DNA of 58,885 nucleotides from a virus. Taxonomy: Duplodnaviria; Caudoviricetes. The notes below the pieces were generated by a model. It saw nothing but the letters and a program-made list of their open reading frames with translations, had not been told where the DNA came from and did not search any database. Every line of letters starts with the position of its first letter. The first letter of the stretch is position 1. The stretch covers positions 1-58,885 of IMG/VR virus record IMGVR_UViG_3300020123_000348. One strand, 5' to 3'. Shown piece after piece: positions 11,585-47,436 of this stretch. Made by a program: the position numbers and the translations under genes.

Positions 11585-12149
11585 AATTGAAATCATCCAA
11601 CATTACATTGATAAGATTAAAGCTATTTCATATCTTGAAATTGGAGTTCAAGATGGTCAGAATTTTAATAAGATTGTTTGTGCTAAAAAGGTTGGAGTTG
11701 ATCCTGATAAAAATTCTAAAGCAACTGTAAATTTAACAAGTGATGAATATTTTGATACTCATACAATAGAAAAATTCGATGTCATATTTTTAGATGGTTT
11801 ACATCATTCAATGCAGTTATTAAAAGACATTAATAATGCTCTTAATTGCTTAGCAGATGGTGGCTATATTATATGCCATGACATAAATCCAAAAGGAGAG
11901 AAAGAACAATTAGTACCAAGAGAAACAAGACATTGGAATGGAGATTGTTGGTTAGCATGGACTATATTAAGAGCGACAAGAAGTGACTTAAAAATGTTTG
12001 TTGTAAATACAGATGAAGGTTGTGGAATTATAAGAAAAGGAAAACAAGAAACAATAAATATTGATTGTAATTTGACTTATGAAAGATTTAGAAATAAAAA
12101 AGTTTATTGGTTAAATTTAGTTGATGTTTCTCAATTTAAACATTTATGA
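11577..12149 (+). CDS. Class I SAM-dependent methyltransferase (Methyltransf_24-like)
   Basis: YLEIGV, GVDP, FDVIFLDGLH, GGYIICHD, WNGDCW. Confidence 0.85.
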   Translation: MNRIEIIQHYIDKIKAISYLEIGVQDGQNFNKIVCAKKVGVDPDKNSKATVNLTSDEYFDTHTIEKFDVIFLDGLHHSMQLLKDINNALNCLADGGYIICHDINPKGEKEQLVPRETRHWNGDCWLAWTILRATRSDLKMFVVNTDEGCGIIRKGKQETINIDCNLTYERFRNKKVYWLNLVDVSQFKHL

Positions 12150-12727
12150 AAATCTGGTATTTCACTCCTTATGCTTTAGATGGTAATCTTGGAAAAGCTT
12201 ATAATGAATATTGTGAGTTAGTTAAAAATGAGAATGATTGGATTTGTTTTATTGATGGCGATGTTGCTTTTTTAAATTCATATTGGGGAAAACATTTTGA
12301 AGATCTTATTAAAAAATATCCTAACGCTGGAATCATAACAGCATATACTAATAGGGTTGGTTGTTTAGAGCAATGTTTGAATGGAATGATTTCAGATGAG
12401 AGTGATATAAAAATCCATAAACAAATAGCTTATAAATGTTCAGCAGAACACTATTTAGAAGTAAAAGAAATCAATCATGTCATATCAGGTCATATAATGT
12501 TATTTAAAAAGAAAACTTGGATTGATGCTAAAGGATTTCCAGAAACGTTGAGAGATAAGGATTTGAACAAATATAGTAAGAATATGGCAACCGTTGATAA
12601 TCGCTTTTCAAGAAGAGTTTTGAATTTAGGAAAGAAAATCTTACTTGCGAAAGGAATGTATGTTTTTCATTACTATAGATTGAAAGAAGGTATTCATTCA
12701 AAAGAACATTTAGGGTTATTAACATAA
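12146..12727 (+). CDS. GT-A fold (GT2-like) glycosyltransferase
   Basis: LGKAYN, WICFIDGD (DxD), VDNRF, YVFHYYR. Confidence 0.78.
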   Translation: MKIWYFTPYALDGNLGKAYNEYCELVKNENDWICFIDGDVAFLNSYWGKHFEDLIKKYPNAGIITAYTNRVGCLEQCLNGMISDESDIKIHKQIAYKCSAEHYLEVKEINHVISGHIMLFKKKTWIDAKGFPETLRDKDLNKYSKNMATVDNRFSRRVLNLGKKILLAKGMYVFHYYRLKEGIHSKEHLGLLT

Positions 12728-16014: not shown

Positions 16015-16376
16015 AAGAAGTAAAAGTTAAAATCTTACAACAAGTTCAGTTAGAATATGTAACTGAAAGATTCAAAGCAAATAACTTCAATAGAGAAGAT
16101 ACTTGCAAAGAATTAGCTATTTCAATAAGAACATTAGGAAGAATCTTAATGAATTTCAATGTTCCAAGACCAAAAAGAGCAGCGAATAAAATAACAGATA
16201 AAATAAGTGATGATATAATATTTTTCATAATATTAGAAATAGGAGGAAAATATGCAGTAAAAACAGCATCAAAGTTTTCTAATAAACAAACAACCGGAAT
16301 TTTAAGATATAAAATACGAGAACTTGCTCAACAAAAAGCTGATGAATTAAATAATCAACCAATTAATAAAAAATAA
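16011..16376 (+). CDS. Fis-like HTH protein
   Basis: ANNFNREDTCKELAISIRTLGRIL matches the Fis/NtrC HTH_8 pattern. Confidence 0.7.
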   Translation: MKEVKVKILQQVQLEYVTERFKANNFNREDTCKELAISIRTLGRILMNFNVPRPKRAANKITDKISDDIIFFIILEIGGKYAVKTASKFSNKQTTGILRYKIRELAQQKADELNNQPINKK

Positions 16377-16783
16377 AATGAATAATTATTTAGTAAAATT
16401 TAAAAACAATGATAATGAAATTCATATCATTACAGTTAATAGAGACAATAAACAACAAGCATTAGAAACACTTATTGATTGTAAAGAAATCATTTTGAGT
16501 CATAAAGTATAAATAAAAATAATGAAATTAAAACTAATAAGCTATGGCATCATGAGTTAGCGATTTCTTGCTAAGAGTTAGGTATATCTCCATTCATCAA
16601 AAATGGCAAATAGGAGCCATAGAACCTCTAAAGTAGGTCATTTGTAGAAACCTATAAGATATATCAAGAATGACTTTTCCAGAGTTCAAAGTAAACTGGA
16701 ATTTGAGAGAAAAGAAGTTTAAGTAAATGATTGATAATTAAATAAAAATGATAATTTTGTAACATGAAAAAAAGTTAAATAAT

Positions 16784-17185
16784 ATGAGAATAATACTTGA
16801 AATATATTTTGGATTGAATTGTATATTATGCGGATTAATGTTTGGTATTTATTGGAAAGAGGCTTCTTATAGAAATGAAAAGATAAATGTGATATTATTT
16901 TCAATAATAGCTTTATTGTTCGGAATTATTATTGTGATGTTGTTAGTTATTTTTAAACCTATTCAATTGTTTTTCAATTATTTAGATGGAATTTGGCAAA
17001 TACGTTTTTTCTTTTGTTATTATGTGTTGAGAAGGCCTTATAAAAATAGAAGTATTGAAGTATTAGAAAGAGTTAATAATCAACTGAAACTTCAAGATGA
17101 AAAATCAATTAAATATAAGATGATGAAGATAGTAGTTGAGAAAGTCAATAAAATAAACAATTACATACCAGAAGGAACAAAATGA
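16784..17185 (+). CDS. Membrane protein
   Basis: Two hydrophobic helices, 133 aa. Confidence 0.6.
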   Translation: MRIILEIYFGLNCILCGLMFGIYWKEASYRNEKINVILFSIIALLFGIIIVMLLVIFKPIQLFFNYLDGIWQIRFFFCYYVLRRPYKNRSIEVLERVNNQLKLQDEKSIKYKMMKIVVEKVNKINNYIPEGTK

Positions 17186-22245: not shown

Positions 22246-23817
22246 ATGAAAGATAAGAAAGAACAAAAGAAAGAAAGCATTGAATATTTGAAGAAATCAT
22301 TTGAAGAATTAGGTGTTGATAAGTTCATCATCAAAAATGTTGTAGAAACTGATCTTCAAAAATCGCATAGAATTCTTAGTTTACGACAAAATGGTGAAGA
22401 TGAGATTGAGAAAGGAACTCCAATGGCTTCACATCCTGGATTAATAAAAAAGAAAGTCACTATTCGCATGGGTGGTAAAACGTTTGAAGGTTATCGTTAT
22501 GTGAAATCTGATACTGGAGCCGCTGCAAGTCATCCAAAAGCAAGCAAGGACGTTCAAGAGACAAATAAGAAACAATCAGAGAAAGTTGAAGCAAAAAAGA
22601 AAGTCAAAGATAATCTTGATGAGAATGGAAAACATGGTAACGAAGATGTAAATGATGAAGAAGATAATGAACAAACAAATCCCGAGTTAGTTAATCAGAT
22701 TATCAAGATAGCTCAAACAAAAGGAACTAATGCAAGCAAAGTAAGAGATTTTATTGGTCTTGGCATTTATGACGCTCAATTGATGTTAAGTTTATGTCCA
22801 CAATTAAAAATAGCAGACATTAATTGGTATGGTAAAGAAGCTGGTTTGGATATGAAAGAGTTTCAGAATAATGTTGTTGGTAAAGTGAATGGGTTTTTAG
22901 GAAACATTGGTTCAAATGATAAAAAAGAATCTGTTGAGGAATTGAGAAAAGTAATGAATGATAAGAATTTCCAAAAGCAATTAGAGCAATCTAAAGAAAA
23001 GCGATTGGAAGATCTTGGAATGTCTCCAGATGAGGTGATGAATATGAAATGGGATGCTTATGATTTGAAACTTAAACAACTTATTGTTAAAAGACAAATT
23101 CCATCATTATTAGTTTATGGAACTGGTGGTATTGGTAAAACATTTGGATTATTGAAATCTTTAGAAGCAGCTGGAAAAGTTGCTTGGGATCCAGAGCTTG
23201 ATTTGCAAGCAAATGAATATGATTATGTAAAAATCAATGGAAACACAAATGCTTCAAGTATGTATAATCTTCTTTATGAGAATCCAAATAAGTTGATTAT
23301 ATATGACGATTGTGATTCAATGTGGAATGATCCAGATTCACCAATGGCAAATATGCTAAAAACAGCTTTAGATGGAACTGGTGATAGGATGATAACGTAT
23401 GACAATCCAAAAAAATTAGAAGATGGAACTAAACCTCCAACTAAATTTAAGTTCCACGGTCAAGTGATATTCATAAGTAATTTACCACGAACGGCTTTTC
23501 CAAAACCAATCGTTGACTCAAGAGCATCAGCTTTAGATTTAACTATGACAATGGATCAAACATTAGCTAAATTAAATAAGATAAAGTATGATGTTGAATT
23601 TAAAGATGTTGATAGTAATGAAATAACTGTTGATAAAGAATCAAGAGATGACATTATGAAATTCTTAGAAGAATATAAAGGCGATTTAAGAGTTGAACAA
23701 GTAAATGGAAGAACATTAGCTAATTTAGCTAAAATGAAAGTTCAATTAGTTGAAGATGGAAAAATTTCTCATAAAGATTTTGTAAGACAGGCAATGATAG
23801 ATTTAGATTTAATTTAA
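22246..23817 (+). CDS. AAA+ ATPase with an N-terminal K|S/G-tagged extension (candidate capsid cargo)
   Basis: Walker A GTGGIGKT, Walker B LIIYDDCD, sensor VIFISN; N-terminal LKKS, LQKS, IEKG. Confidence 0.82.
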   Translation: MKDKKEQKKESIEYLKKSFEELGVDKFIIKNVVETDLQKSHRILSLRQNGEDEIEKGTPMASHPGLIKKKVTIRMGGKTFEGYRYVKSDTGAAASHPKASKDVQETNKKQSEKVEAKKKVKDNLDENGKHGNEDVNDEEDNEQTNPELVNQIIKIAQTKGTNASKVRDFIGLGIYDAQLMLSLCPQLKIADINWYGKEAGLDMKEFQNNVVGKVNGFLGNIGSNDKKESVEELRKVMNDKNFQKQLEQSKEKRLEDLGMSPDEVMNMKWDAYDLKLKQLIVKRQIPSLLVYGTGGIGKTFGLLKSLEAAGKVAWDPELDLQANEYDYVKINGNTNASSMYNLLYENPNKLIIYDDCDSMWNDPDSPMANMLKTALDGTGDRMITYDNPKKLEDGTKPPTKFKFHGQVIFISNLPRTAFPKPIVDSRASALDLTMTMDQTLAKLNKIKYDVEFKDVDSNEITVDKESRDDIMKFLEEYKGDLRVEQVNGRTLANLAKMKVQLVEDGKISHKDFVRQAMIDLDLI

Positions 23818-23827: not shown

Positions 23828-24346
23828 ATGGATAACTTAATTGATAAAAAGAAAATATCTGCAAAAGATCTTGAAGGAAATTTTGAAGAACATAAAACTC
23901 AACAGCTTGAAAATTTGCTTCAAGTTTTACTTTCAACAGAACATGATGATGATATAACTGTCAATCTCATTATAGCTGAATTATTGAATCGAGGAATCTC
24001 AAAAGATGAAATCAAAGAGAAATCAAAAGATAAGAAAGTCAAAGATAAAATTGAAAAAGCTTTTGACATTTTAGGAATTGATAAGATTCAAAAAGGAACT
24101 CTGCATAAGACTCATAAATATCTTAAGATAGTTAATGGTCATTATATTTACAAAGAAAATGAGATGACAAGCAAAGACCATTCAGAAGCCGCAAGTCATC
24201 ATAAAATGGAATTTGAAAAGTTGAATAAGACAAATAAAATTGATGAAAAGCATCGTAAGAAACTGAAATATCATCAAGATGTAGCTGACAGGCATGAGAA
24301 GTTGGCAAAAGATAAAATAAAAACAGAAAAACTTTCTAATAAGTAA
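23828..24346 (+). CDS. Candidate internal head protein
   Basis: IEKAFDILGIDKIQKG followed by HKYLKIVNGHYIYKE and a His-rich helical tail. Confidence 0.6.
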   Translation: MDNLIDKKKISAKDLEGNFEEHKTQQLENLLQVLLSTEHDDDITVNLIIAELLNRGISKDEIKEKSKDKKVKDKIEKAFDILGIDKIQKGTLHKTHKYLKIVNGHYIYKENEMTSKDHSEAASHHKMEFEKLNKTNKIDEKHRKKLKYHQDVADRHEKLAKDKIKTEKLSNK

Positions 24347-24348: not shown

Positions 24349-27117
24349 ATGAAGCCATTCCCAGCGGGGACAATTCGTGATTGGGAAGGTGGAACTTTCA
24401 TTAAAGCTTGTGAGCCTTCAAAATACAACCATTCAGGTTGGATTCCATTACAAACAAGTCAAGCATTAGAATCAATAGGAAGAGAATGTGATTCATTAGC
24501 AAGTAGTTGTTTAAGTAAGAAAGAACCTATCGCTGGAGAAATCGCACTTGATCACGAAATTGATAACTTTGAAAAAGATGCTAATGGAGATCATCCATAT
24601 ACTGCAAATGACTTTAAGAAATATGAAGGTTTTTATGGTTCAGGAAGATACTCATTTCGTAATGAATTTTCACGAAGATTCATGGCTGAAAAACTTGCGT
24701 TGCAAGAAGCTATCAATAAAGCTTACGATGATGCGATGCCAAGTAATGCTATGAAAGGATTAGATGCAGCTACAAAAAAAGAAATAAGAAATGAAGTCAA
24801 AGCTAATTTCAATTATAATTACGAGCCATTCAAAACAACTCAAGCAAATGAACTGAAAGGAATCATTGAACGCACTAAAAAGCAATTGGATATTGGATTT
24901 AATTTTGAGGGTGAGCAGAAGAAAGTTTATGATGAGGCTTTAAGTGTTGTAAAATCTCTTCCATTAGAATATGATAGAATAGCTAAAAAGCGAAAACAAA
25001 AAGAAGATGCATTAAAAGCAATCAATGAGATTTTCAAAGATAACTGGGGAGCAAGAGAGGCAGTAAAGAAAAAATTAGATGATGCTTATGGAGAATATGT
25101 AAGGAAATTCTCAGATCAAATAAGAGAAGGCGAAGGCAAATCACAAGAAGAGACTTTTGGAGTTACAATTGATGAACCTTATGAAACATTTTATCCAAAG
25201 TTATTTGACAAGATTCAATTAGACAGAAATAAATTCAACAAATATAAAGTTGAAGACATTGAGTTAGATAAATATGAAGGAGAAGAGATTGCTTTAGAAG
25301 GAATTTCATTCATTTTGAAAAAAGATAAAAATGGACATTTATATTTAGTTAGATCTAATCAAATATCTGGAAATCCTAAATTTAATATAGATGCTATTAA
25401 AGACCATGAGCGATTATATCCACAAGGATATTTAGAAATTGATAATCGACTTGAATTACCAGTAAAACAAGGTTTAGTTGATAAGCTAAACATGTTTGAT
25501 TTATTGAGTCAGCATATTGGGGAAGAAATTGAAACTATTACGAATTCCCATTATGGTAAATCAAAAAATATTTATAAAATAAAAAAAGACAAAGAGAATA
25601 AAATTTATTTAGAAGATTTTGTTGGAAACAGAAAAAACTTTAATGAATATTCAAAAACATATAGTGTTGTAGCAGAACAATTACATAAACAATCCAAATC
25701 ATATCCTTTCAATGAACTTCTCTATTTACGTTTTGAAACTTTATATAGTAAACAATTTGATGGTGATTGGAATGAATCGATGTTACCAGTTATTTACAAT
25801 ATCGAAAAGTTATTGAATACATTACCACTAGGGCATGCTATCAATAATGGCGAATTGAATCAAATCACAAATAAAGAATATGGTGACAATAATGGTTATG
25901 CTTGGTATTCATCAAATGAAAGACGAATCAATTTCAGTGACAAAGCGGCGAATGCTTTTTCAATATGGGGAGATTTAAAAGGTTCACAAGAATTCAATTC
26001 AGTTGTTGCTCATGAAATTGGTCATGCTGTAAGTTATAAATTGGGAAGAAAACCTAATTTAAACTATCGTAAATTTGGAAAAGAATGCGGCTGGGATTGG
26101 TCATATTTGAGGCCGTTGGGAGACGATTATATAAAAACAGGAGATCAAAAAGGAGTTGAAAGAACTGGAAGTGAATCTCATCAACCATTATTGACTGCTT
26201 ATGCTGAGACAAGTCCTGAAGAAGCTTTTGCAGAATATTACTCAATCTATGTAAATAACAAAGAAGCCATTGATTCATATTTAGCAACTAACAACAAAGA
26301 ATTCTTATGTAAAGTGAGTAAAATAGTTGCTCAATCAAAACCAGATAGTGATTTGAAAAATGTGAAAGATTATAGTGGTTTTCAGAATAAAGATCAATAT
26401 AAACAAGATAAAGAATGGTTAGCTAATAGAGTAAATAAGAGAACTATTGAAATTCCAAAAGAAATCGAAAATCTTCATTTACAAGATAAGAAAAATTTTG
26501 ATGTTGAATTGATAAATCCTTGGATGGTAAAATTTGACAAAGGAATCAAAGAAGAAGCTGAATATATAAAAACAGGTTTATATAATGCTCGCATAAATGA
26601 ACCTCATCCAATAGTTGTAATTCAAAGCAAAACTAATATATATCATTGTTTGAGATATGAGAATTATTGTATGGCATTCAAGAGAACACATAAAATGGCT
26701 CCGGCATTGATTATAAGTGAAGAAGCGTATTCACAATTAAGTCAAAAATTCACTAAAGAAGAAATCATTGATTATGCTATATATTTTTTAAGAGATCGAA
26801 AAGTACCATTGCAAAATAATGTAGCTAAATTTAAAAAAGGATTAGAATATAGGAATGAAGTTTTAAGTGTTGAAGATCTGGTTCATAATAAAAACCGCTT
26901 TTTAGCAATGAAAAAAATATTTGATTCTCCTTCATTACAAAAAGCTTTAAAAGAATTATTTGGTTTGAATCATCTAAGAGATGTTTTTGCAATCAATCAA
27001 CCAATTCAAGATAATGCATTAGAATTACAGAAAAGTGAGTTGAATAGTATTCTATCGGAATTGGAAGAAAATGCATTAGAGCTTAATCTTGTAATGCGAG
27101 AAATAGATTCTAATTAA
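24349..27117 (+). CDS. Large multidomain protein with a zincin metallopeptidase domain
   Basis: VAHEIGHAV (HExxH at 26011-26025) and YAETSPEEAFAEYY; C-terminal LQKA and LQKS. Confidence 0.78.
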   Translation: MKPFPAGTIRDWEGGTFIKACEPSKYNHSGWIPLQTSQALESIGRECDSLASSCLSKKEPIAGEIALDHEIDNFEKDANGDHPYTANDFKKYEGFYGSGRYSFRNEFSRRFMAEKLALQEAINKAYDDAMPSNAMKGLDAATKKEIRNEVKANFNYNYEPFKTTQANELKGIIERTKKQLDIGFNFEGEQKKVYDEALSVVKSLPLEYDRIAKKRKQKEDALKAINEIFKDNWGAREAVKKKLDDAYGEYVRKFSDQIREGEGKSQEETFGVTIDEPYETFYPKLFDKIQLDRNKFNKYKVEDIELDKYEGEEIALEGISFILKKDKNGHLYLVRSNQISGNPKFNIDAIKDHERLYPQGYLEIDNRLELPVKQGLVDKLNMFDLLSQHIGEEIETITNSHYGKSKNIYKIKKDKENKIYLEDFVGNRKNFNEYSKTYSVVAEQLHKQSKSYPFNELLYLRFETLYSKQFDGDWNESMLPVIYNIEKLLNTLPLGHAINNGELNQITNKEYGDNNGYAWYSSNERRINFSDKAANAFSIWGDLKGSQEFNSVVAHEIGHAVSYKLGRKPNLNYRKFGKECGWDWSYLRPLGDDYIKTGDQKGVERTGSESHQPLLTAYAETSPEEAFAEYYSIYVNNKEAIDSYLATNNKEFLCKVSKIVAQSKPDSDLKNVKDYSGFQNKDQYKQDKEWLANRVNKRTIEIPKEIENLHLQDKKNFDVELINPWMVKFDKGIKEEAEYIKTGLYNARINEPHPIVVIQSKTNIYHCLRYENYCMAFKRTHKMAPALIISEEAYSQLSQKFTKEEIIDYAIYFLRDRKVPLQNNVAKFKKGLEYRNEVLSVEDLVHNKNRFLAMKKIFDSPSLQKALKELFGLNHLRDVFAINQPIQDNALELQKSELNSILSELEENALELNLVMREIDSN

Positions 27118-27134: not shown

Positions 27135-30100
27135 ATGAATGTACAAGAATCTTTAGAAGTAATTAATCAAGCTTTCAATCAAGGTTTAATAACTGGTGAG
27201 AAATACTTTGAGACTCTTGAAAAAGCTCGTGGTAAAGTAGCTTTTTTAGATGGAACGATTTCAAAGAATGGTTTATATAGAAAAGATTCATCAGCTAAAA
27301 GTGGTTGGACGAAGATTGAAAATAAAAGAAAGAAAAAAGTTGTTGAAGAGAAAAAAGAAAGTAATAGTGAAATATTTATTCCAGAAGGAAAATTTCAATT
27401 AAAAATTAAACCATTAAAGGAAGGAAAAGATCCACTAATAGTTGAAGCAATTTCAGATAATTATGGAAAAGGAATTACAGTTTATATGGATGGAAAAAAT
27501 TATTATTTAACTGGAAAACAAATTCAAAATTTCTTAAAAACAGGAGAATATGAAATTATAAAAAAAGAAATCTCAAAACCTATTCAAGCTAAAAAACTAA
27601 ATGAAGATGATGAAGATGAAAACTTCGACCAAAAAGAACAATTTGAAACTAAAGAGCAATTAAATGAATTTATAAAAAATGGAGACATTACAGAACAGCA
27701 AGTTGAAGAATTCGGACAAAGAACAGAAGAACAAATTACAGAGCTTGAACCAACTATTAAGACTCTTGAAAATGAGACAACTGATCTCACAAGAACGACT
27801 ACGGAGAAACTTAGTAGATTAGATGATCAAATTGATGAGCTTATAAATAGCTCACATAAAGCGACTCCATTATTAGATGCTTATGAAAAGCGATTTGATG
27901 AATTGGATATTGAGACGTCTCATAAAGATCCAGATAAAATTGAAATTGGAGATTATGTAACCACAAAACGAGCTTTCAAAAAAGAGCCAATGAATGGTTT
28001 TGTAACTAAAATAGAAACAAAATCAATTACCATAAAGCATCCAAAAGGTGGTTGGACAGGTGACGAGAATGACTTTAATTTTATTCAGGAACATAAAGTC
28101 TCGAAAACTGATGTTGAGAGTTATTATAAATTGAAGAAGAAAATAAATGTAAATTACAATGATAATATTAGTCTTAATGAAAGTGAAATATCCGAAGATT
28201 CAACTGAATATAAACGAAACAGTGGATCCAAAAGTGAAATACAAAACTTCGAAGAATTTGAAAAAGAGCAATTACCAAGATATGCTGAAAAAGTTAAATC
28301 ATTAATTGAAAAAGTAATTGCTAAAGAATATCTTTCGGATGAAGAAGTTTCAGATTTAGGTTTTAGTATTATTCAATTAAATAAATATCAATATCAAGAT
28401 ATTTCTCAAGATTTTATTTATATTGGAACTTATTTGTCTATTGGGCGAAACAAAATTTTATTCAATAATGAAAAAACAAAAGAAACATTTATAAATAAAG
28501 GAAAAGAGCTTTTAAAACAATATCAAGATAATAATATTCAAAAGTCTGAAGAATGGTTTTTCAATCTCTTAGAACGAAAGAAACAACTGCAAGAACAACT
28601 TATAAACATAGTTGATGCAAATCCAGAATTGATAGATGATGAGATAGTAAAATCTTCAACATTAGATACTTTAGTTCCAGGATTTACAGATAATCTAAAA
28701 GAAGTTCTTCATAAAAATAAAGTCAAAGGAAAACAACATTTCTCAGATGCAATTATCATGAATGACAAAGGAGAAATTCTTATGTTATTTAGAAACATTA
28801 ATAAGAATCCAGAATTATCACATAAATGGTCATTACCAGGAGGACATATTGACAAAGAAGAAAATGCACAAGAAGCATGTATTCGTGAAACTCTTGAAGA
28901 AACAAATTTAGTTGTTGATTCATGTCAATTGTTTTATGTTAAAGAATGTGATAAAGCTATAATTAACTTTTTCAAATGCGTTATTGACTTAAATCAATTA
29001 CCTATTTTAGATGCTATGGAACATTCAAATCTTAAATGGGTGAGCAAAACAGAACTTCAAGATTTAGATTGTATTTATGACTTAAAAGATACGTTGAATA
29101 AATTGGTATTTCCTGATTTAGGTGGATTAGATAAAATTGAAAAAGAAGTTGAAATTGAGGATGATATTGTTAATGAGATAACTAAAGCTCGAAAAGTTGG
29201 AAGTTTAAATAAAGTTCATAAATTTATTAGAAAAGAAAATGGTGAATATATTTATGAAGATAAATTAGAACCAAATGTTCATAATAAAATTGATTGTAAT
29301 GAAGTTTTTGAAAATAAAGTATTTCAAAAAAACATAACAGATTTAATTAAATGGTTTAAAAAAATATTTAATGTTAAAGAGCAACATAATATTCCACTTG
29401 ATAAAAGAAAAGATCTTTGGGATGAAAATAAATTTTGGCAAAAAGATAATTTTATAAATAAATCTTTTATTGAAAAAATAAAACTTGAAAATATTTTTCC
29501 ATCACAAGAATCAACATTTATAGAACCACTTTTAGATAAACTTAATGGTTCTAAAAGTCATAGTACAGATTTACCTTTAGGTTTATTAATTGGAGATACT
29601 GGAAAAGTTTTATTATTTGATGGACATCATAGAATAGTTACTGGAATCATTAAAGGAGAAAAAGAATTTGATATTAAATTAATAAAAGTTGGAACATATC
29701 ATTTTTTTAAATATTTTGATAAGTTTAAAAACGATATTGAAAAATCTGAAATAAGTATCATTTTAAAATCAGTTGATGCTTCAATTTCAATCATTCAAAA
29801 AGCATTTGATGCAGATCAGATTAGTGAAGAAGAATATTTTAATGCACTTAAAAAAGCTCGTCATGCACATCATAAATATTTGAGGATTGAAGGTAAGAAA
29901 TACATCTATAAAGAGAATGAAGGAAAGTTAAAAGTTGATTGGAACAAAGATCTCATAAGTGATGAACAATATTTTCAAGCATTAGAAAAAGCTAAACATA
30001 TTGAAAAACGAATTCATACATCTAAAAAGACTGGAAAAAAATGGTTGGAGAATCATGAGGTTGGAAGTGATGAAGAAGAGAAATTAATTCAAACAAATGG

Positions 30101-31394
30101 CGAACTTGATAATTATGTCGAAGAACTCACTAAAGATAATGTTGAATTAAAATTTGAAGCAGGAGAAAAATCATTGCATCTTAAAATCATTGATGTAAAT
30201 AAAAATAGAAACAAAGGTCTTGGTTCTCAAGTTATGAATAAAGTAATTGAATGGGCAGATAAGAATAAAATCGTTATAGATTTAGTTCCAGCTGGAAGTT
30301 ATATTAATTCAAGAACTTTTCTTATTAATTGGTATAAGAAATTTGGATTTATTGAAAATAGAAAAGAAAATTCAAATGATGATTTTCTTTATATGTATAG
30401 ATTACCAAAACAAAAAGAAGAACCTTCAACTCAACATCAATCATCTCAATTGATAACTTATTTAGAACAACTTTCAACTTTGATGAAAGATAATCCTCAA
30501 CAAAAAGCATTTTTTGATTGGGAGAAAAACAATGCTAAACAAGTGAAAATAGTCTCAACAGCAGAAATACGATTAAAATATCCTAAGATTGATGAATATT
30601 TAAAACAAGAATGGAATCAACCAGAAGTCAAACAATGTTATTCAAATGCAGCTAAATTAGCAACTAATATTGAGAGAGTAGAATATATTGAAGGCATGAT
30701 TTCAATGATGGGAATTCCTATTGATCACGCTTGGAACAAGGTTGGTGATGAATATTTTGACATAACTAAAGATATTGCTTTGAGTGATGCAACAATTTCT
30801 AATGATGAATATCTATCAATCATAGAGTTAGATACAGAAACTACATTAGAATATATGTTAGAAACTCAAGTTTATGGCGGTTATATTCAACAAAAATATA
30901 TGCGAGATAATGGATTAACAAAACCTAAAAGTAAAACATATAAAATAGAGAAAGCTGAAAAGAATAAAAAGATAGAACTTAATCAAAATGAAAAGAAAGA
31001 AAAGAAACTTCAACTTCATGAATATGAAGATGATGACTTAAAATTGCACGCAACAAGAACAAGTGAAAAGCATTTGAAACGAATTATAAGTGAATCATCA
31101 AATCCAAGATTAAGACAATTTGCTCAAGAAGAACTTGATAATCGCGATCCAAAGAAACAAAAAGAAGTAGAAAAAGAAGATAACTTATTTGATTTGATGA
31201 TTAGTGAAGAACCGGATATTAAAAGAGGTCGTAAACCAGAAAGTGAAACGATTCATTTTGAAAAAGAACCACCGAAAGATGTCATTGAAAAACTTCATGA
31301 ACATAGAATCAAATATATGATTGGAACAACAGAAATTGAGGATGAAGAAGAAAAGTTACAAAAAGCTTTAATGTTAGAAATGGAATTAATTTAG
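27135..31394 (+). CDS. Polyvalent protein: NUDIX + ParB-like + GNAT + papain/transglutaminase-like domains
   Basis: Nudix box GHIDKEENAQEACIRETLEETNL (~28840-28910); LFDGHHR (~29620); RNKGLGSQVM..WYKKFGF (~30200-30350); QCYSNA..HAWN..YFDIT (~30630-30770). Confidence 0.82.
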   Translation: MNVQESLEVINQAFNQGLITGEKYFETLEKARGKVAFLDGTISKNGLYRKDSSAKSGWTKIENKRKKKVVEEKKESNSEIFIPEGKFQLKIKPLKEGKDPLIVEAISDNYGKGITVYMDGKNYYLTGKQIQNFLKTGEYEIIKKEISKPIQAKKLNEDDEDENFDQKEQFETKEQLNEFIKNGDITEQQVEEFGQRTEEQITELEPTIKTLENETTDLTRTTTEKLSRLDDQIDELINSSHKATPLLDAYEKRFDELDIETSHKDPDKIEIGDYVTTKRAFKKEPMNGFVTKIETKSITIKHPKGGWTGDENDFNFIQEHKVSKTDVESYYKLKKKINVNYNDNISLNESEISEDSTEYKRNSGSKSEIQNFEEFEKEQLPRYAEKVKSLIEKVIAKEYLSDEEVSDLGFSIIQLNKYQYQDISQDFIYIGTYLSIGRNKILFNNEKTKETFINKGKELLKQYQDNNIQKSEEWFFNLLERKKQLQEQLINIVDANPELIDDEIVKSSTLDTLVPGFTDNLKEVLHKNKVKGKQHFSDAIIMNDKGEILMLFRNINKNPELSHKWSLPGGHIDKEENAQEACIRETLEETNLVVDSCQLFYVKECDKAIINFFKCVIDLNQLPILDAMEHSNLKWVSKTELQDLDCIYDLKDTLNKLVFPDLGGLDKIEKEVEIEDDIVNEITKARKVGSLNKVHKFIRKENGEYIYEDKLEPNVHNKIDCNEVFENKVFQKNITDLIKWFKKIFNVKEQHNIPLDKRKDLWDENKFWQKDNFINKSFIEKIKLENIFPSQESTFIEPLLDKLNGSKSHSTDLPLGLLIGDTGKVLLFDGHHRIVTGIIKGEKEFDIKLIKVGTYHFFKYFDKFKNDIEKSEISIILKSVDASISIIQKAFDADQISEEEYFNALKKARHAHHKYLRIEGKKYIYKENEGKLKVDWNKDLISDEQYFQALEKAKHIEKRIHTSKKTGKKWLENHEVGSDEEEKLIQTNGELDNYVEELTKDNVELKFEAGEKSLHLKIIDVNKNRNKGLGSQVMNKVIEWADKNKIVIDLVPAGSYINSRTFLINWYKKFGFIENRKENSNDDFLYMYRLPKQKEEPSTQHQSSQLITYLEQLSTLMKDNPQQKAFFDWEKNNAKQVKIVSTAEIRLKYPKIDEYLKQEWNQPEVKQCYSNAAKLATNIERVEYIEGMISMMGIPIDHAWNKVGDEYFDITKDIALSDATISNDEYLSIIELDTETTLEYMLETQVYGGYIQQKYMRDNGLTKPKSKTYKIEKAEKNKKIELNQNEKKEKKLQLHEYEDDDLKLHATRTSEKHLKRIISESSNPRLRQFAQEELDNRDPKKQKEVEKEDNLFDLMISEEPDIKRGRKPESETIHFEKEPPKDVIEKLHEHRIKYMIGTTEIEDEEEKLQKALMLEMELI

Positions 31395-31828: not shown

Positions 31829-33592
31829 ATGAGTGATAAAATAAGATTTGGCATACCAATTGACATTATTAAAAGCAAAAATGCTAAAGGTGATGATGTT
31901 TATAAATTTAAAGGATTAGCTTCAACTAATGATAAAGATAATCAAGGAGAAACCTTGTTAGCTAAACAATTTGATTTGAATGATTTTAAAAATGTCAATT
32001 ATAATCATCAAGGTGCAAAAGATGCGAACGCTGTTTTAGGAGAAATTACATCTCATAACTTTGATAGAGCTGGTTTGAATGTCGAAGGAGAATTGTGGGG
32101 AGATATGCCGATGACTCCTGCTGTTGTATCTTTGATGAAACGAAAAGCTAAACAAGGTAAGAAATTGCAACTTTCAGTTGAAGGTCAGGTTTTGCAACGA
32201 GGTGCAAACAAATGTTCAAAATGTGGTAATTCATTAGAAAAATCAAGTGTATGTACTAAATGCAAAGCAAACACTCAAGGATTTAATAAGATAGTGAAAG
32301 CTAAATTAACAGGTGTTGCAGTTACATTGAATCCAATCAATGGTAATACGTTTTGTGATTTGATTGAAAAAGGGATTACTAATAATGAGTGGCTTTATTC
32401 TGATGAAGATGAATTGTTGATGAAAGCCGTTGATACTAAAATGAAAAAAGGAAAATCAATCACTAATGAAAGTGATGATGATGGAGATGATGATATGCAA
32501 ATGAGTGAGAAAGATGATTTGGAGAAATCTAATTGTCCTAAATGTAAAACATTACTTCAAAAAGGACTTTGTTCAAAATGTGGTTATACAATAGAAAAAG
32601 CTATGTCAGCAGGTTCTGATACTGGAACTGATATTACAAATAAGCAATCAAATGGTTCTGCTTTAAAGAAAGAAGATGTTGAAAGTAAAAAGAATTTATC
32701 TAATACTTTAAGTAAGTCTGAAGCTTACTCTACTATCTTTGATTATTTTTACCCTACAATTGATTTTAAAAAAGCTGGTGAAATTTATAAATTAACAGAA
32801 AAAATAAGTAAAATGGAAAAGAAGCCAATTTCAAAGGAAACTTTAAGTAAAGCATTCGAAATAATCGAACTTGCCATTAAAGAAAATGAAAATTCAGAAG
32901 TCAATGAAGCTATTGATTTGATTAAATCAGATTTCAATGATTTAGAAAAATCAGAACAAGTTGAAGAGCTTATAAAAGCAGGATATGATGAAGAAGTAGC
33001 TAACAATGCTGCTGATAAGCATGAAGATGATGAGAAGGATAAGAAAAAGAAGAAGAAACATGTTGCAAAAAAGAAAGATGATGACAATGAAGAAGAGGAA
33101 GATGAAAACTTTGAAAAAGCTTTAGGAGCAATTGAAGAAATTTCAATCAATCAAGATATGAAATTCGGAGCTCTTGGAGTCATTATTAAATCTCAATCCG
33201 AAACAATTGAGAAAATTTCCACTCAATTAGAAGAAACTACTGATGCTTTGAATGAAGCAAAAGAAGTGATTCAAAAATCTTTTGATTTGATTGAGAAAAT
33301 TTCGAAAACTGCAGTTAAATTCAACCGTCCAATTGGTGGAGCAAACGGCGTTGAACGATTTAAAGAAAATAAAGAAAATGGAAACAAGGTTTATAATATC
33401 AATAACAGAATTCAAAAAGCTGAATTGATTCAGACTCTTGATAATTTAAGCAATCTTGGTGGAAAATTCAATGAAGATCTTTTGAAAGCAGCGAGTGATT
33501 TGGAAATCGCCGGTGTTTTTGGAGACAGGAGAATGATTCCATATTTGAAAGATGTTCACAATATTGAAGTTGTAACATCTGATGGTGAGTAA
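31829..33592 (+). CDS. Prohead protease fused to scaffold
   Basis: FKGLAST..DNQGE..NYNH..LSVEG..GVAVTLNPIN HK97/S78-like protease; acidic coiled-coil C-terminus; directly upstream of the capsid gene. Confidence 0.88.
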   Translation: MSDKIRFGIPIDIIKSKNAKGDDVYKFKGLASTNDKDNQGETLLAKQFDLNDFKNVNYNHQGAKDANAVLGEITSHNFDRAGLNVEGELWGDMPMTPAVVSLMKRKAKQGKKLQLSVEGQVLQRGANKCSKCGNSLEKSSVCTKCKANTQGFNKIVKAKLTGVAVTLNPINGNTFCDLIEKGITNNEWLYSDEDELLMKAVDTKMKKGKSITNESDDDGDDDMQMSEKDDLEKSNCPKCKTLLQKGLCSKCGYTIEKAMSAGSDTGTDITNKQSNGSALKKEDVESKKNLSNTLSKSEAYSTIFDYFYPTIDFKKAGEIYKLTEKISKMEKKPISKETLSKAFEIIELAIKENENSEVNEAIDLIKSDFNDLEKSEQVEELIKAGYDEEVANNAADKHEDDEKDKKKKKKHVAKKKDDDNEEEEDENFEKALGAIEEISINQDMKFGALGVIIKSQSETIEKISTQLEETTDALNEAKEVIQKSFDLIEKISKTAVKFNRPIGGANGVERFKENKENGNKVYNINNRIQKAELIQTLDNLSNLGGKFNEDLLKAASDLEIAGVFGDRRMIPYLKDVHNIEVVTSDGE

Positions 33593-33632: not shown

Positions 33633-35132
33633 ATGGGTTCAGAATTTACCTCTTTAGAGGATTACAACAATGGCTTCTCAGATGGGGAAGTTGGAAGCAC
33701 GGCAGAGCTTTTAAAAGCTATGCAAGCAGGACAAATCACAGGTCGTGATACTGCAAATTTAGATTTAACTATTGAGCCTTTGAAAGCTGAATCGTTAGAG
33801 AGAACACTGAAACTCTTAGATTTCAGGACAAAAGACATTCGCTTGTTAAATGCAATGCCTAAAATGACAGCTTACAATACTGTAGAAGAATTTTTGCAAT
33901 TGAAAAGCTATGGTACTGATCGTGGAGGTTTTTACAATGAAGGCGAACTTTCTGATGTTGAAGATTCAACATACGTAAGACGTTCTGAATTGATTAAATA
34001 CATTCAGGTTACAGGTGAAGTTACGTTGCAAGCTCAAATGGTTCATTCATTTATTGATGCTTACAAAAAAGAAGTTGAAAACAAGACAATGTGGGTAATG
34101 CGTAAAGCAAATTCCGCAATGACTAAAGGTGATGCTGATATTGTACCACAACAATTCAATGGTTTATTCAAACAACATGCAAATATCGGATCAGGTGGTG
34201 GTCTTGATTATTTGTATGCTGATTTGGAAACTTATATGACAAGTGATGTTGTCATTGACAAACGTGGAGAATCATTGACTCAGTTCGATATTGAGAATGC
34301 AGCTGTAATTGGCGATGGACATTATGCTACATTTACTGATTTATTTGCTCCAACAAGTGCTATTTCAGCTTTGATTCAAGATTATTTCAAGATTCAAAGA
34401 TTGATTAAAGGAACTAATAATGGAGCAGTTGGTGTTACGATTCCTTCAATTGATACATCGATGGGTAACATTAAATTGTCAAGTGATAAGTTCATGAAAG
34501 CTGATTCTTCAAGACTTTTGACTGATGGGGCAACATCTCCAAAAGCACCAACTATTCCAACAATTTCTTCTCAAGCTATTGAAATAGATTCTCACAGTAA
34601 AGTAACTGCTGCTGACGCAGGTTCTCGTTACTATGCTGTTGCGACTGTAAACCGTTATGGTGAATCTGCTCTTGTTCAAATGTCAGCTTCTGCATTAGCA
34701 ATGGTTGCTGGTTATTCTGCTCAATTAGGATTTGATTACACAAATCAAGTTGGTAGTCCAACTGGTTTCAGAGTATATTCAACAAAGGTTACGACTGCTG
34801 GAGCAAACACTGGATTGAAGTTTTATCCTTTGTTTTATGTTTCAACGGCTCAACGTGCCGCTGGATATGATGGCGCCGCTGCTAATTATGTTTGGGATCG
34901 CGCAAGATTCTTGCCGGGAATGGAACAAGCATTTATGACTCAAATGGATGAGGAAGTAATGTCATTCAAGCAATTAGCTCCAATTTCAAAATTGGATTTG
35001 GCTGTGATTTCGATGAGCAAGCGATTTATTGCATTTAATTTCTGTTGCCCTAATTTATATGCTCCACAAAAGATGGTGAGGTTTGTAAATTGTTCACCAA
35101 CATTGAATGTGTCAGATCCTGATCTTGCGTAA
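33633..35132 (+). CDS. Major capsid protein (SPO1/Twort-like)
   Basis: LLKA maturation-like site, PLKAESLE, NTVEEF, QQFNGL, FN3-like insertion YYAVATVNRYGES, KQLAPISKLDLA; followed by a strong terminator. Confidence 0.92.
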   Translation: MGSEFTSLEDYNNGFSDGEVGSTAELLKAMQAGQITGRDTANLDLTIEPLKAESLERTLKLLDFRTKDIRLLNAMPKMTAYNTVEEFLQLKSYGTDRGGFYNEGELSDVEDSTYVRRSELIKYIQVTGEVTLQAQMVHSFIDAYKKEVENKTMWVMRKANSAMTKGDADIVPQQFNGLFKQHANIGSGGGLDYLYADLETYMTSDVVIDKRGESLTQFDIENAAVIGDGHYATFTDLFAPTSAISALIQDYFKIQRLIKGTNNGAVGVTIPSIDTSMGNIKLSSDKFMKADSSRLLTDGATSPKAPTIPTISSQAIEIDSHSKVTAADAGSRYYAVATVNRYGESALVQMSASALAMVAGYSAQLGFDYTNQVGSPTGFRVYSTKVTTAGANTGLKFYPLFYVSTAQRAAGYDGAAANYVWDRARFLPGMEQAFMTQMDEEVMSFKQLAPISKLDLAVISMSKRFIAFNFCCPNLYAPQKMVRFVNCSPTLNVSDPDLA

Positions 35133-40889: not shown

Positions 40890-43979
<3,090 letters not shown>

Positions 43980-44920: not shown

Positions 44921-46582
44921 ATGGCAACACAACATATATTTGGTGGAAAAGTAATAACAATTCCAGATGTTTATTCTCAAATTTTAAGTGGTTTTAAAAA
45001 TCCCCCAAGCGATGTTGATTATGGACACGTACTTATTATTGATACAGGTTCGGGAGCAGGTGGTGGTGGAGGAGCGGGAATAGCTGGAACATTATCAAGC
45101 GGAACCGATGCTGTTTATGGTTTTGATAATATTGATGACTTTAAAAATTTTATTGAAAAAAATTTTTGGTACTTACTTGCAAAACCATTGTTTGAACCAT
45201 TAACAGAAAATCAAATCAAACAACCGGGAGTCTCTAAAATAACTTTTATAAAAGCAGCAACGACTGTGCCGGCATCAATGACATTTCATCCAACCGGTGA
45301 TTTTTCAGATTCAATGGGATATGCTGGAACTATTATTATCAAAGTAAGAAACGAAGGTTTAGTTGGAAATGGAGCTCTGAATACCAATTCAGAATTAAGC
45401 CGAGGTTATGCTTTTAAAGTAAAAGCTGGAATAGTTGATTCAACTAAATTCATCATGAATTTTTATCGTGGAACATTCAGAGGTTTAGATCAAAACAACA
45501 ATCCAATTGGAGGAATCGCAGAAGCAGATACAACAGCTCAATTACTTTGCCAGTCAGATGAATTTGCAACATTAGCAGAATTAGTAACCTGGATGGAATC
45601 ATCAACTGATTTCGGAACATATTTTTATTACGATTCTGCAAACAGTTCAGTTACTCACAGAGGTTATGTTGATGCAGATGTTTTGGTTGATTATCTGGAT
45701 TATACACTTGCATCAGGCGGAACTGAATCATACACCGCAGATGATTTAACTGCTGCTTTATTAGCTGTGAAAAAATTACCTTGTGATTTTATATTCTGTG
45801 ACAAATACGGTTCAAATTCATATCACGCTAATAACTTAGCAATTGTTGATGCTGCACAAAACGATATGAAATTTAAACCACAGGTTTATATTGCAAGTGG
45901 AAGCACAAAAGCACAGTTTACAGCCAATTCAATAGTTGATGCTCAAGCCTACGACAGTCAGCAAGTCACAATCTGTCACGGTGGATCGAGAATCTCAAAT
46001 AGAGCGAGTTCAATTGGATATTATCAATTCGATTCGTATTATACAGCAGCCATTGCTCTTGGCCGTGAAGCTGGATTATTTCCGTCAAAACCAATAACTT
46101 TTAAAAACATCTCAGTTAATGGATTACAACATGTATTAAACGAGACAGAAGAAAAACAAGCGTTAAAATATGGCGTATTAACAGTGCGTCCAGATGCAGG
46201 TGTTTTTGAATGTATTAAGGATGTAAATACACTTCAAAACAATCTTTATTTACAAAATTCTGATGGATCAACTGCAAATAAACAGTTATATCGTATTTGT
46301 GCTTATTTGAATAAGTTGATTATGATTCGCGCTAAAGCAGAACTTTTAAAAGATAAAAACGGAACAAATAGGAATACACTCTCTGAAAGTGACGTGAATC
46401 AGTGGCTTAAGAGACTATTAAAATCCGTTCAAGCAACTCCAACTCAAGATAATATTATTCTTAGTTTTGAAGATCCAATTACAACTCGAGAATCAGATGC
46501 TTATTTTTCTAATTACCGTTTCATTCCAAACACTGAAATAGCGTTCCTTTTCTTCACTGGTTCAACTATTGAGATTAATTAA
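44921..46582 (+). CDS. Tail sheath protein
   Basis: 553 aa; IPDVYS N-terminus, AAIALG..PITFK, ALKYGVL, DVNTLQ; upstream of the tube gene. Confidence 0.9.
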   Translation: MATQHIFGGKVITIPDVYSQILSGFKNPPSDVDYGHVLIIDTGSGAGGGGGAGIAGTLSSGTDAVYGFDNIDDFKNFIEKNFWYLLAKPLFEPLTENQIKQPGVSKITFIKAATTVPASMTFHPTGDFSDSMGYAGTIIIKVRNEGLVGNGALNTNSELSRGYAFKVKAGIVDSTKFIMNFYRGTFRGLDQNNNPIGGIAEADTTAQLLCQSDEFATLAELVTWMESSTDFGTYFYYDSANSSVTHRGYVDADVLVDYLDYTLASGGTESYTADDLTAALLAVKKLPCDFIFCDKYGSNSYHANNLAIVDAAQNDMKFKPQVYIASGSTKAQFTANSIVDAQAYDSQQVTICHGGSRISNRASSIGYYQFDSYYTAAIALGREAGLFPSKPITFKNISVNGLQHVLNETEEKQALKYGVLTVRPDAGVFECIKDVNTLQNNLYLQNSDGSTANKQLYRICAYLNKLIMIRAKAELLKDKNGTNRNTLSESDVNQWLKRLLKSVQATPTQDNIILSFEDPITTRESDAYFSNYRFIPNTEIAFLFFTGSTIEIN

Positions 46583-47436
46583 TGTATGGTTATATTTATA
46601 TAACGATTTGTATAGTTAATAAAACTATTTATATTGGTCAGCATAAAGCTAAACAATATAATCCTAAATATTTGGGATCTGGAACTATTTTATGGAATGC
46701 TATTAATAAACATGGATGTGAAAATTTTGAGAACACTCAAATTGATGTAGCTTCTTCTAAAGAAGAACTTAGTAAAAAAGAAATTTCTTGGATTTCATAT
46801 TTTCGTAATAATGGTTTTATAATGTATAATATCTCAACTGGAGGAGAATGGGGTGATAATTTTACAAATCATCCAAACAAAGAAATTTATAGAGAAAATA
46901 TTAGCAAAGGTTTAAAAGATTCTGAAGAATTTCAAACAACAGTTAGATCTCCGAAAAGAAGAAAAAATGTAAGTGATGGAATGAAAAATTCTGAAAAATG
47001 GAAACTTTCTCATAATACAAAAGAATATAAAGAAAAATCAAGTAAAGCTTTAACTGGAATTGAACGTAAAAAAGGAACCTGTATTTATTGTGGAAAAACA
47101 ATGCTAATGAGTTTATTAATTCAATTTCATAATGATCATTGTTATCACAATCCACTTATTAATATTGAAGCAGAAAGATTAAGACGTAAACCTAAAAAAG
47201 AAACTTTAGAAAAAAGAAGCAAATCTTTAAAATTAGTTAAAAGAACTAAAGAATGGAATGAAAAAATAGGTCTTGGTAATGTTGGAAAAAATCCTACAAT
47301 TGAAACAAGAAAGAAAATGTCAGAAAAAGCAAAATTAAGAAAAAGAAAACCTTTTACTAAAGAACATCTTAAAAACTTAAGTATTGCTGCAATTAAAAGA
47401 GAAAGAAAAAAGAAAGAACTAAAATTAGCATCTTAA
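46582..47436 (+). CDS. Free-standing GIY-YIG homing endonuclease (paralog of 6548-7510)
   Basis: GYIYIT..IYIGQH..YLGSG..YNISTGG; NUMOD3-like ETRKKMSE; CIYC..H..C. Confidence 0.9.
   Translation: MYGYIYITICIVNKTIYIGQHKAKQYNPKYLGSGTILWNAINKHGCENFENTQIDVASSKEELSKKEISWISYFRNNGFIMYNISTGGEWGDNFTNHPNKEIYRENISKGLKDSEEFQTTVRSPKRRKNVSDGMKNSEKWKLSHNTKEYKEKSSKALTGIERKKGTCIYCGKTMLMSLLIQFHNDHCYHNPLINIEAERLRRKPKKETLEKRSKSLKLVKRTKEWNEKIGLGNVGKNPTIETRKKMSEKAKLRKRKPFTKEHLKNLSIAAIKRERKKKELKLAS

Follow-up and report, generated by a model that had tools for sequence, protein, structure and literature searches.

Why would a phage carry, directly upstream of its prohead protease and major capsid protein (MCP) genes, one long open reading frame (ORF) that appears to encode several unrelated enzymes? 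We addressed this question for a stretch of viral DNA (Caudoviricetes; IMG/VR virus record IMGVR_UViG_3300020123_000348, estimated completeness 56%), which was analysed over its whole length of 58,885 nucleotides (nt) and is referred to as the window. Its + strand carries nearly all long ORFs, among them the gene P0001, encoding a protein of 1419 amino acids (aa). A sequence-only reading of this gene had described one chain with four enzyme domains (NUDIX, ParB/sulfiredoxin (Srx)-like, GNAT and papain/transglutaminase-like) and had proposed that they represent an injected anti-defence or host-takeover kit. The reading frame is uninterrupted and all four motif sets are found at the positions given for them, whereas the proposed role is supported in part. 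The chain is composed of four unrelated modules: the NUDIX domain is firm, the GNAT domain is good, the ParB/Srx fold is moderately supported, and the Cys-His-Asp domain, termed Cpep, is a real conserved family. On balance, we favor the interpretation that P0001 is a head-packaged polyvalent effector polyprotein, which would be delivered together with the DNA and might be cut by the prohead protease.

Four unrelated modules in one reading frame

The organization of the gene is as follows, with all coordinates referring to the window.

27135..31394, + strand: whole ORF of P0001, the proposed polyvalent polyprotein (1419 aa), uninterrupted, 0 stops
27144..27332, + strand: N-terminal linker/tag copy 1 (aa 4-66), helical 'AF-x3-I(T/S)-x2-(E/K)Y...LEKA(K/R)', then basic hairpin-like 'Y-R-K...G-W'; this N-terminus is common to P0030, P0014, P0017 and P0023
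27333..28541, + strand: aa 67-469, not assigned to a family; small region (67-150), acidic/coiled stretch, possible small beta-barrel (251-335), helical stretch
28542..29129, + strand: NUDIX module (aa 470-665), in which a helical N-extension conserved in the family precedes the NUDIX domain (Pfam 539-641); the Nudix box covers aa 570-592 = nt 28842-28910
29181..29270, + strand: hairpin-type linker motif 'HKF-IRKENGEYIY' (aa 683-712), beginning right after the candidate site EITK|A (K684|A685)
29277..29714, + strand: likely ParB/sulfiredoxin-fold cassette (aa 715-860), core 778-852; DGHHR aa 829-833 = nt 29619-29633
29745..30101, + strand: two tandem linker copies (aa 871-930 and 937-989), copy 2 resembling a deletion junction relative to P0002
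30102..30419, + strand: short GNAT acetyltransferase cassette (aa 990-1095), motif A RNKGLG at nt 30207-30224
30432..30920, + strand: Cys-His-Asp domain Cpep (aa 1100-1262) with C1168, H1198 and D1209
30921..31391, + strand: family-specific C-terminal tail (aa 1263-1419), predicted helical repeats and a small beta-alpha-beta unit 'TIHFEKE...IKYMI'

For the comparison with relatives, an exhaustive HMMER search was performed with aa 220-1419 as the query, and the modules of P0001 were mapped onto the 150 best matches and three further proteins. The motif sets exceed what is expected by chance. The NUDIX assignment is based on the Pfam model PF00293, which matches residues 539-641 with E 4.7e-14 (53 bits versus a cut-off of 21.1), and on phrog_1198, which matches at 1.2e-18. 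In addition, a PDB sequence search yielded 36 matches at E<=1 that are nearly all of the MutT/Nudix type (best 3.1e-7). By direct reading, the Nudix box fits the consensus G-x5-E-x7-R-E-U-x-E-E-x-G-U with every Glu and Arg position kept, the replacement of the last G by N being the sole deviation.

The GNAT cassette contains the motifs RNKGLG (aa 1025-1030) and WYKKFGF (aa 1066-1072). The acetyl-CoA motif A of GNAT enzymes is R/Q-x-x-G-x-G/A, which is satisfied by RNKGLG. The Pfam model Acetyltransf_7 remains at 17.8 bits on P0001, under its cut-off of 27. The homologs P0056 and P0095 exceed the Pfam cut-offs (Acetyltransf_7/_10/_1), and P0056 is 48% identical to the P0001 cassette over 105 aa. 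The motifs and homologs suggest a GNAT assignment that is well supported, though indirect. Moreover, the cassette resembles parts of very large proteins of phages: it matches phrog_10691 (a profile of 3925 positions) with E 4.5e-10, part of a Serratia phage Parlo protein annotated as 'DarB-like antirestriction' (39% over 76 aa) and part of a 'PLxRFG protein' of a Klebsiella phage. P0056, a metagenomic protein of 233 aa, carries the same GNAT cassette together with a C-terminal 'LLDGHHR' region; a GNAT domain and a ParB-type motif therefore co-occur elsewhere, in reversed order.

For the DGHHR region itself, Pfam yielded no match at E<=1 for the whole protein, at E<=10 for aa 669-880, or on three solo homologs. 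These three, all solo proteins of 167-190 aa, are the only homologs of the region among the 150 best matches listed from the exhaustive search; a word-index search returned no homologs and a search of viral contigs no relatives. The FDGHH sequence is invariant in 4/4 aligned sequences and the R is kept in 3/4. An AF2 model computed from this alignment of 4 sequences has a mean pLDDT of 56.5 (core 60-85). When it was compared with the PDB by Foldseek, nearly all matches at E<0.1 were sulfiredoxin, ParB, Noc, SbnI and free serine kinase, which belong to the ParB/Srx superfamily, the best being sulfiredoxin 2rii (E 8.3e-4, TM 0.60 to target). Judging from this model, the region likely adopts a ParB/sulfiredoxin fold, short of certainty. 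The cassette also has the lowest G+C content of the gene (0.205-0.22, with surroundings of ~0.26-0.31). In the preceding part of the protein, aa 251-335 give a weak match to Phage_ProQ_C_like (E 0.0066, under the cut-off).

The fourth module contains the motifs QCYSNA (1167-1172), HAWN (1198-1201) and YFDIT (1207-1211). The family is mostly viral and occurs as solo proteins of ~150-190 aa or within proteins of 418-1879 aa, at the N-terminal, middle or C-terminal position. It is widespread: the set examined contains ~79 copies, and viral Atlas clusters have up to 395 members. An AF2 model derived from 41 sequences (320 aa including the helical tail; model residue 1 = aa 1100) has a pLDDT >90 over its first 160 residues. 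In this model the Cys opens helix 69-79, the His lies in strand 95-104 and the Asp just past strand 107-109. A Cys at a helix start with His and Asp on or beside the following strands is the layout expected of papain-/transglutaminase-like thiol enzymes, and the model has this layout. The papain/transglutaminase assignment of the earlier reading was nevertheless not borne out by structure comparison: Foldseek returned 0 matches in the PDB at E<=0.001, where the long helical tail of the query may have cost sensitivity, and the best thiol enzymes were SseI (4g2b, E 0.69), 3isr (E 0.98) and LapG (4fgp, E 1.1). There was likewise no Pfam match, and a PDB profile search gave nothing relevant. A search of BFVD yielded only uncharacterised phage proteins (best E 7.9e-5), and the Atlas search yielded viral clusters annotated 'hypothetical' (0.93-0.94), with YunG-type families scoring no more than 0.86, a lead rather than evidence; the literature matches listed for YunG proved to be noise.

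The conservation expected of catalytic residues holds for the family at large, the triad being C/H/D in 75/79 domain copies, but not for 4/9 close family members, P0007, P0010, P0011 and P0012, in which the Cys and/or the His are replaced. That Cpep is a thiol enzyme is a reasonable guess; its fold class is not confirmed and the label 'peptidase' is not established. Of the four enzyme domains claimed for P0001, NUDIX stands by its Pfam match, GNAT by way of its homologs and the ParB/Srx fold as likely, whereas the papain/transglutaminase fold is left without a significant structural match. At residues ~560-620, where other members have Cpep, P0014 contains 'GYCDF...HDHSWFEYNG-x-CYD', by eye a second divergent Cys-His-Asp module that was undetected by phmmer.

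A conserved frame with exchanged cassettes

The search with aa 220-1419 detected 2304 proteins at E<=1e-3, 25 of them at E<=1e-30. The core family (P0002, P0003 and P0007-P0012) shares one frame, in which the NUDIX domain with its conserved helical N-extension is followed by a variable middle, Cpep and the C-tail; P0013 and P0014 have NUDIX and C-tail without a detectable Cpep. The middle differs from relative to relative. A Zeta_toxin-type P-loop kinase cassette is present in P0002, P0008, P0017, P0023 and the IMG/VR contig L012, a His_Phos_1 (branch-1 histidine phosphatase) cassette in P0003 and P0013, and a 2H phosphoesterase cassette in P0009. Among looser relatives, P0023 combines the Zeta-type kinase with an NT5C-type 5'-nucleotidase (just under the cut-off) and GNAT, and P0018 contains a UvrD-type helicase cassette.

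The exchange is most directly seen in the closest relative, P0002 (1879 aa), which starts at the equivalent of P0001 residue 415, possibly because of a contig end at this position. The two proteins are 75-88% identical in seven shared blocks, with different cassettes between them. Compared with P0001, P0002 has 190 additional aa inserted before NUDIX and a stretch of 400 aa where P0001 carries its 193-aa ParB-type stretch. It also has 437 aa, the Zeta-type kinase among them, that are missing from P0001, and a 126-aa cassette in place of GNAT. At the other end of the protein, P0030 shares the first 70 residues of P0001 and aa 155-299 (60% identity), with another, unassigned cassette instead of aa 75-150. 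A by-eye guess that P0030 carries an ART-like cassette lacked Pfam support and was dropped. Swapping of cassettes among homologs, which the sequence-only reading had named as a check, thus occurs, both between the blocks of P0002 and in the varied middles of the other relatives.

No relatives of the whole of P0001 were found in viral contigs. The alignment of the frame located one metagenome locus of 1264 nt and no relative in viral contigs. A mixed MAFFT alignment of aa 700-1265 with three kinds of solo homologs misplaced the ParB and GNAT rows and was kept out of folding.

Repeated linker units

The cassettes of P0001 are joined by a repeated unit of ~55-60 aa. It is composed of a helical motif, h-x2-I-x2-A-F-D-x3-I-S/T-x2-E-Y-x3-L-x-K-A-K, followed by a basic hairpin-like motif that occurs in the variants H-K-Y-x-x-K-x-x-G-x-Y-I-Y, K-K-T-G-K-x-W/Y...H-x-V-G and G-x2-R-x-W-x-G-x2-Y/F-x-K...G-W. 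P0001 contains units at aa 4-66, 871-930 and 937-989 and a hairpin-only copy at 683-712. The motifs were counted in the 62 plus-strand ORFs of the window of at least 80 aa and in 200 shuffles, with the following result.

Helical motif: observed 3, expected 0.27, observed number reached in 1/200 shuffles
Hairpin motif: observed 2, expected 0.02, reached in 0/200 shuffles
GW variant: observed 1, expected 0.0, reached in 0/200 shuffles

All copies are confined to three adjacent genes (23828-24346, 24349-27117 and 27135-31394), and they are detectable as DNA repeats with 65-78% identity. A crude hidden Markov model (HMM) of the linker matches 59/169 proteins examined, often right after the NUDIX domain; this HMM is rough, and one match inside Cpep is probably an artefact. 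Pfam searches with the linker pieces gave no match at E<=10. A resemblance of the helical motif to SHOCT was considered and rejected, as Pfam SHOCT was not recovered at E<=10.

The unit is not restricted to positions between domains. It stands at the extreme N-terminus of P0001, P0030, P0014, P0017 and P0023 and at the N-terminus of the upstream protein P0005; the hairpin motif starts the solo ParB-type protein P0111, and the helical and GW motifs are present on the solo NUDIX protein of Chryseobacterium phage MA9V-3. Since a spacer is not needed at N-termini and on solo proteins, we argue that the unit has its own function. The second linker of P0001 continues in its first half P0002 930-937 and in its second half the P0002 linker at 1375, with 437 aa missing between them, and reads like a deletion joint. 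It is tempting to speculate, though we regard this as tentative and on present grounds below an even chance, that the helix-plus-hairpin module is a portable capsid-cargo tag and processing unit: enzymes with this module and (D/E)-h-x-K|(A/S/G) sites on their flanks would be loaded into the prohead, cut by its protease and injected, and the linker DNA might serve as a recombination joint.

Gene neighbourhood

The gene for P0001 starts 18 nt after P0005 and is followed by an 88-aa ORF, the protease gene and the capsid gene, with ~430 nt separating it from the prohead protease. The surrounding genes are listed below.

23828..24346, + strand: P0156, 172 aa, with the hairpin motif 'HKY-LKIVNGHYIY'
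24349..27117, + strand: P0005, 922 aa, likely a second cargo or processing protein of the set; hairpin-type 'GW' motif at residues 5-33 and zincin-like motif HEIGH...EEAFAEYY
31829..33592, + strand: P0006, prohead protease fused to an acidic scaffold-like region (phrog_1028, 8e-24), with 6 x (D/E)-h-x-K-(A/G/S)
33633..35132, + strand: major capsid protein (phrog_752, 4.8e-62), with 'ELLK|AMQAGQITG' near the N-terminus

P0005 gives a sub-threshold Pfam match to Reprolysin_3 (E 0.005), and no relative was found in PHROG, NCBIfam, the PDB or isolated phages. Its zincin-like motif suggests that it may be a metallopeptidase partner of the polyprotein. P0006 contains two CxxC...CxxC zinc-ribbon-like inserts (Pfam DZR, E 8.2e-5, under the cut-off).

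The capsid protein shares 54% identity with its counterpart in MA9V-3 (103 kb) and ~37% with those in the Bacteroides phages DAC19 and SJC03, and parts of the arrangement recur in these relatives. MA9V-3 has a 1459-aa ORF, XQU63094.1, followed by a gene for a solo NUDIX of 235 aa, XQU63093.1, and immediately downstream of it protease-MCP. In DAC19 the solo NUDIX has 226 aa and is encoded three genes upstream of the protease homolog, at a distance of ~1.9 kb from the capsid gene, which lies downstream. Upstream of protease-MCP, L012 encodes a 1303-aa fusion of a P0005-like region, Cpep and a Zeta-type kinase.

Further genes of the window were noted in passing. A 523-aa protein (22246-23817, + strand; phrog_1250) is conserved in MA9V-3, corresponds to the C-terminal part of an L012 protein of 925 aa and contains two K|(A/G/S) motifs. 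Homing-endonuclease-like genes (phrog_314) are scattered in the structural region, in the window at 6548-7510 and 46582-47436 (+ strand) and in L012 at 11383-12153 and 16308-17156; one of them stands directly after the portal gene, and in L012 one is located between the polyvalent gene and the protease. A 1029-aa protein (40890-43979, + strand) contains collagen triple-helix repeats (Pfam Collagen, 6.3e-9) and is probably a fibre; a 342-aa antisense ORF within its gene (42470-43498) is probably a by-product of the repeats.

Proposed packaging and processing

How might such a protein be used? We propose that it is made late, alongside the head proteins, and that it probably ends up inside the procapsid and reaches the host together with the DNA. 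The fixed frame comprises NUDIX near the front and the Cys-His-Asp domain with the conserved C-tail at the end, and has interchangeable cassettes in between, in P0001 a putative ParB/sulfiredoxin-fold NTPase/nuclease-type domain and the short GNAT acetyltransferase. The linkers (helical plus basic hairpin, ~55-60 aa each) join the cassettes and are the places of exchange between related phages; the swap junctions coincide with these linkers and, in part, with (D/E)-h-x-K|(A/S/G) sites. The prohead protease encoded next door may cut at K506|S, K684|A and K870|S. Such cuts would release one NUDIX fragment and one ParB-type fragment, the latter sized like stand-alone proteins. Once inside, the enzymes would have their early targets among the nucleotides, nucleic acids or proteins of the host.

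The putative cleavage sites were searched for with the pattern (D/E)-(L/I/V/M)-x-K-(A/G/S). The protease-scaffold protein P0006 contains 6 copies versus 0.6 expected, a number reached in 0/200 shuffles, and its counterpart in MA9V-3 contains 5. In the capsid protein, 'EL-x-K|AM-x-AG' is conserved near the N-terminus in 4/4 divergent homologs, after an unconserved leader, and looks like a propeptide site. In P0001 the pattern identifies the three candidate sites given above, with predicted fragments 507-684 (NUDIX) and 685-870 (ParB-type). The latter, with 186 aa, matches the solo homologs in length (167-190 aa); one of these opens with the hairpin motif. In addition, a site 'NP-x-F...K|(S/A)' ~35-40 residues from the N-terminus is found in 10/83 NUDIX-bearing matches, which represent the close family.

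Several observations weigh against this proposal. The number of sites in P0001 is not significant (3 versus 1.04 expected, reached in 19/200 shuffles). However, each of the three sites lies <=5 residues from a P0001/P0002 junction; by a rough estimate the six junction windows make up ~7% of the compared length, and three coincidences would then be unlikely, although the fit was seen after the fact. The junctions at aa 945, 988 (after 'VGSDEE') and 1092 lack a site. The suggestion of the sequence-only reading that K|A sites form the cassette borders is thus plausible for the three junctions that fit K|(A/S/G), and a general rule that swaps occur at K|A sites was discarded on account of the other three: 'K|A' explains at most part of the junctions. 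Moreover, the portal gene is located at 4833-6548, ~20 kb upstream of the P0001 gene, and the ParB-type model is of low confidence (pLDDT 56.5, 4 sequences). The NUDIX domain reaches none of the NCBIfam equivalog cut-offs that would name its substrate. Finally, packaging, cleavage and injection of P0001 are all inferred indirectly.

Two further points on the negative side lead to the explanation that the same multi-enzyme is not packaged at all, its position next to the head genes reflecting operon layout. It would then act in the cytoplasm of the infected cell, for instance late on nucleotide pools, RNA ends or phage DNA. Pfam searches revealed neither MuF nor portal nor another known head-anchoring domain in P0001, and the solo Cpep genes of the small Bacteroidales phages PDS1 (Parabacteroides) and BKO1-3 (Bacteroides) lie among replication/early genes and not among head genes. 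Likewise, according to PMC9503650, phage Nudix genes occur in early as well as in morphogenesis regions. However, NUDIX recurs directly upstream of protease-MCP in MA9V-3 and a few genes upstream in DAC19, Cpep and Zeta cassettes stand upstream of protease-MCP in L012, the linker motif is limited to three adjacent genes of the head module, and the site motif is common to scaffold and capsid protein. We therefore regard an unpackaged enzyme as unlikely. An even less probable alternative is that the Cys-His-Asp domain is an autoprocessing thiol peptidase that cuts the linkers in place of the prohead protease, in a role like that of zincins elsewhere. Apart from NUDIX and C-tail, no module of the frame is as constant as Cpep, and its triad conservation, the arrangement of Cys, His and Asp in the predicted structure and the second divergent Cys...His...Asp module seen by eye at the equivalent place of P0014 would agree with such a role. 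Against it speak the lack of a significant structural match to any peptidase (SseI, 3isr and LapG being the best thiol enzymes at the E values given above) or of any Pfam or PDB sequence match, P0007, P0010, P0011 and P0012, which are without Cys and/or His yet keep the multi-cassette layout, and the common solo forms of ~150-190 aa, some of them among early genes without a polyprotein to cut.

A different question is what the enzymes would act on. The cassettes of the family lean to nucleotide- and phosphate-acting enzymes, which, as far as the domain assignments go, fits degradation of immune signals or remodelling of RNA ends and nucleotide pools alike. An RNA-end and nucleotide repair kit, with NUDIX as a decapping enzyme or pyrophosphohydrolase and the kinase, phosphatase, 2H and 5'-nucleotidase cassettes of the relatives as partners, would counter RNA-cleaving defences or reshape pools instead of degrading immune signals. 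Besides the dominance of phosphate- and nucleotide-acting cassettes, weak Nudt16-like decapping matches, under the cut-off, in P0003, P0004, P0007, P0008, P0010 and P0018 point in this direction, as do the associations of Nudix, 2H and kinase in phage RNA-repair neighbourhoods described in PMC9503650. On the other hand, neither an RNA ligase nor another hallmark of repair was seen in these proteins, and the ParB/Srx and GNAT cassettes of P0001 itself are ill-suited to such a set. In addition, the Zeta-type kinase family is known for phosphorylation of a cell-wall precursor rather than of RNA. We consider this target rather doubtful, although it has more in its favor than the two alternatives above, and retain the head-packaged polyprotein as the preferred interpretation.

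Relation to known systems

PMC5512222 defines polyvalent proteins, predicted to be injected with the DNA, and the earlier expectation that the domains of P0001 recur in such phage and plasmid proteins agrees with this published class. P0001 combines at least two disparate activities in one polypeptide (NUDIX, GNAT, ParB/Srx-fold and Cys-His-Asp in one 1419-aa ORF) and has a virion/late gene context directly upstream of prohead protease and MCP. Disparate enzymes in one phage-encoded chain beside virion genes, GNAT and ParB-superfamily modules and proposed processing are common to both. The differences concern the constant parts. The zincin-like hub reported there is present in ~36% of polyvalent members and not obligatory, and the four peptidase superfamilies named there (PMC5512222) include no thiol enzyme. 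P0001 contains no HExxH module, and its constant parts are NUDIX, the Cys-His-Asp domain, the C-tail and the repeated linker. In the text of that paper, 'Nudix' appears once and 'zeta toxin', 'cysteine' and 'linker' zero times (PMC5512222).

Nudix proteins of myoviruses are predicted to be often head-packaged (PMC9503650). As with the T4 NudE-type cases considered there, a Nudix gene is located in the late/head region of phages with contractile tails; in some cases it is fused to head proteins, and injection is predicted. Unlike these cases, the Nudix domain of P0001 is fused to effector cassettes and not to MuF, portal or protease, and it reaches no NCBIfam equivalog cut-off. P0001 also resembles DdrB/DarB of phage P1, which are large, head-packaged and multi-domain; DdrB has a ParB-superfamily domain and is proteolytically processed, and DdrB-like ParB domains end strand 2 with an Asp/Asn and possess an additional helix in which a Tyr is conserved (PMC5512222). 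In contrast to DdrB/DarB, P0001 is without methylase, helicase and zincin, so that the likeness is limited to single cassettes.

The internal proteins and Alt of phage T4 co-assemble with the prohead and are injected together with the DNA, after trimming by the head protease, whose short consensus site also occurs in scaffold and capsid protein. The proposed prohead enzymes and a head-protease site shared with scaffold and capsid offer a parallel, by analogy only. The T4 proteins are single-domain with a targeting peptide of ~10 residues, whereas P0001 is a multi-cassette chain with a repeated module of ~55-60 aa.

The combination of domains and linkers had been proposed as possibly undescribed. 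For the architecture and the linker this holds as far as the literature was searched, where no description of the P0001 type was found, with the limit that the external architecture lists of PMC5512222 lie outside these searches and may include it. For the wider concept it does not, as the polyvalent class and the head-packaged Nudix are already in print (PMC5512222, PMC9503650).

Taken together, three uncharacterised and widespread phage modules are defined here: the Cys-His-Asp domain, the C-tail and the linker/tag. If our interpretation is right, the P0001 family represents a clean natural example of the exchange of injected enzymes, in which the frame is fixed, the joints are standardized and a protease site is shared, and it makes concrete predictions of virion fragments and of their start points. 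It would extend the idea of the head-packaged Nudix to chains of several enzymes, most of the partners acting on nucleotides and phosphate groups, and would thereby be a candidate source of counter-defence against nucleotide-based immunity. The most interesting point is the linker as a portable capsid-cargo and processing tag, which, if true, would mean plug-and-play exchange of injected enzymes in a clade of Bacteroidota-type myophages.

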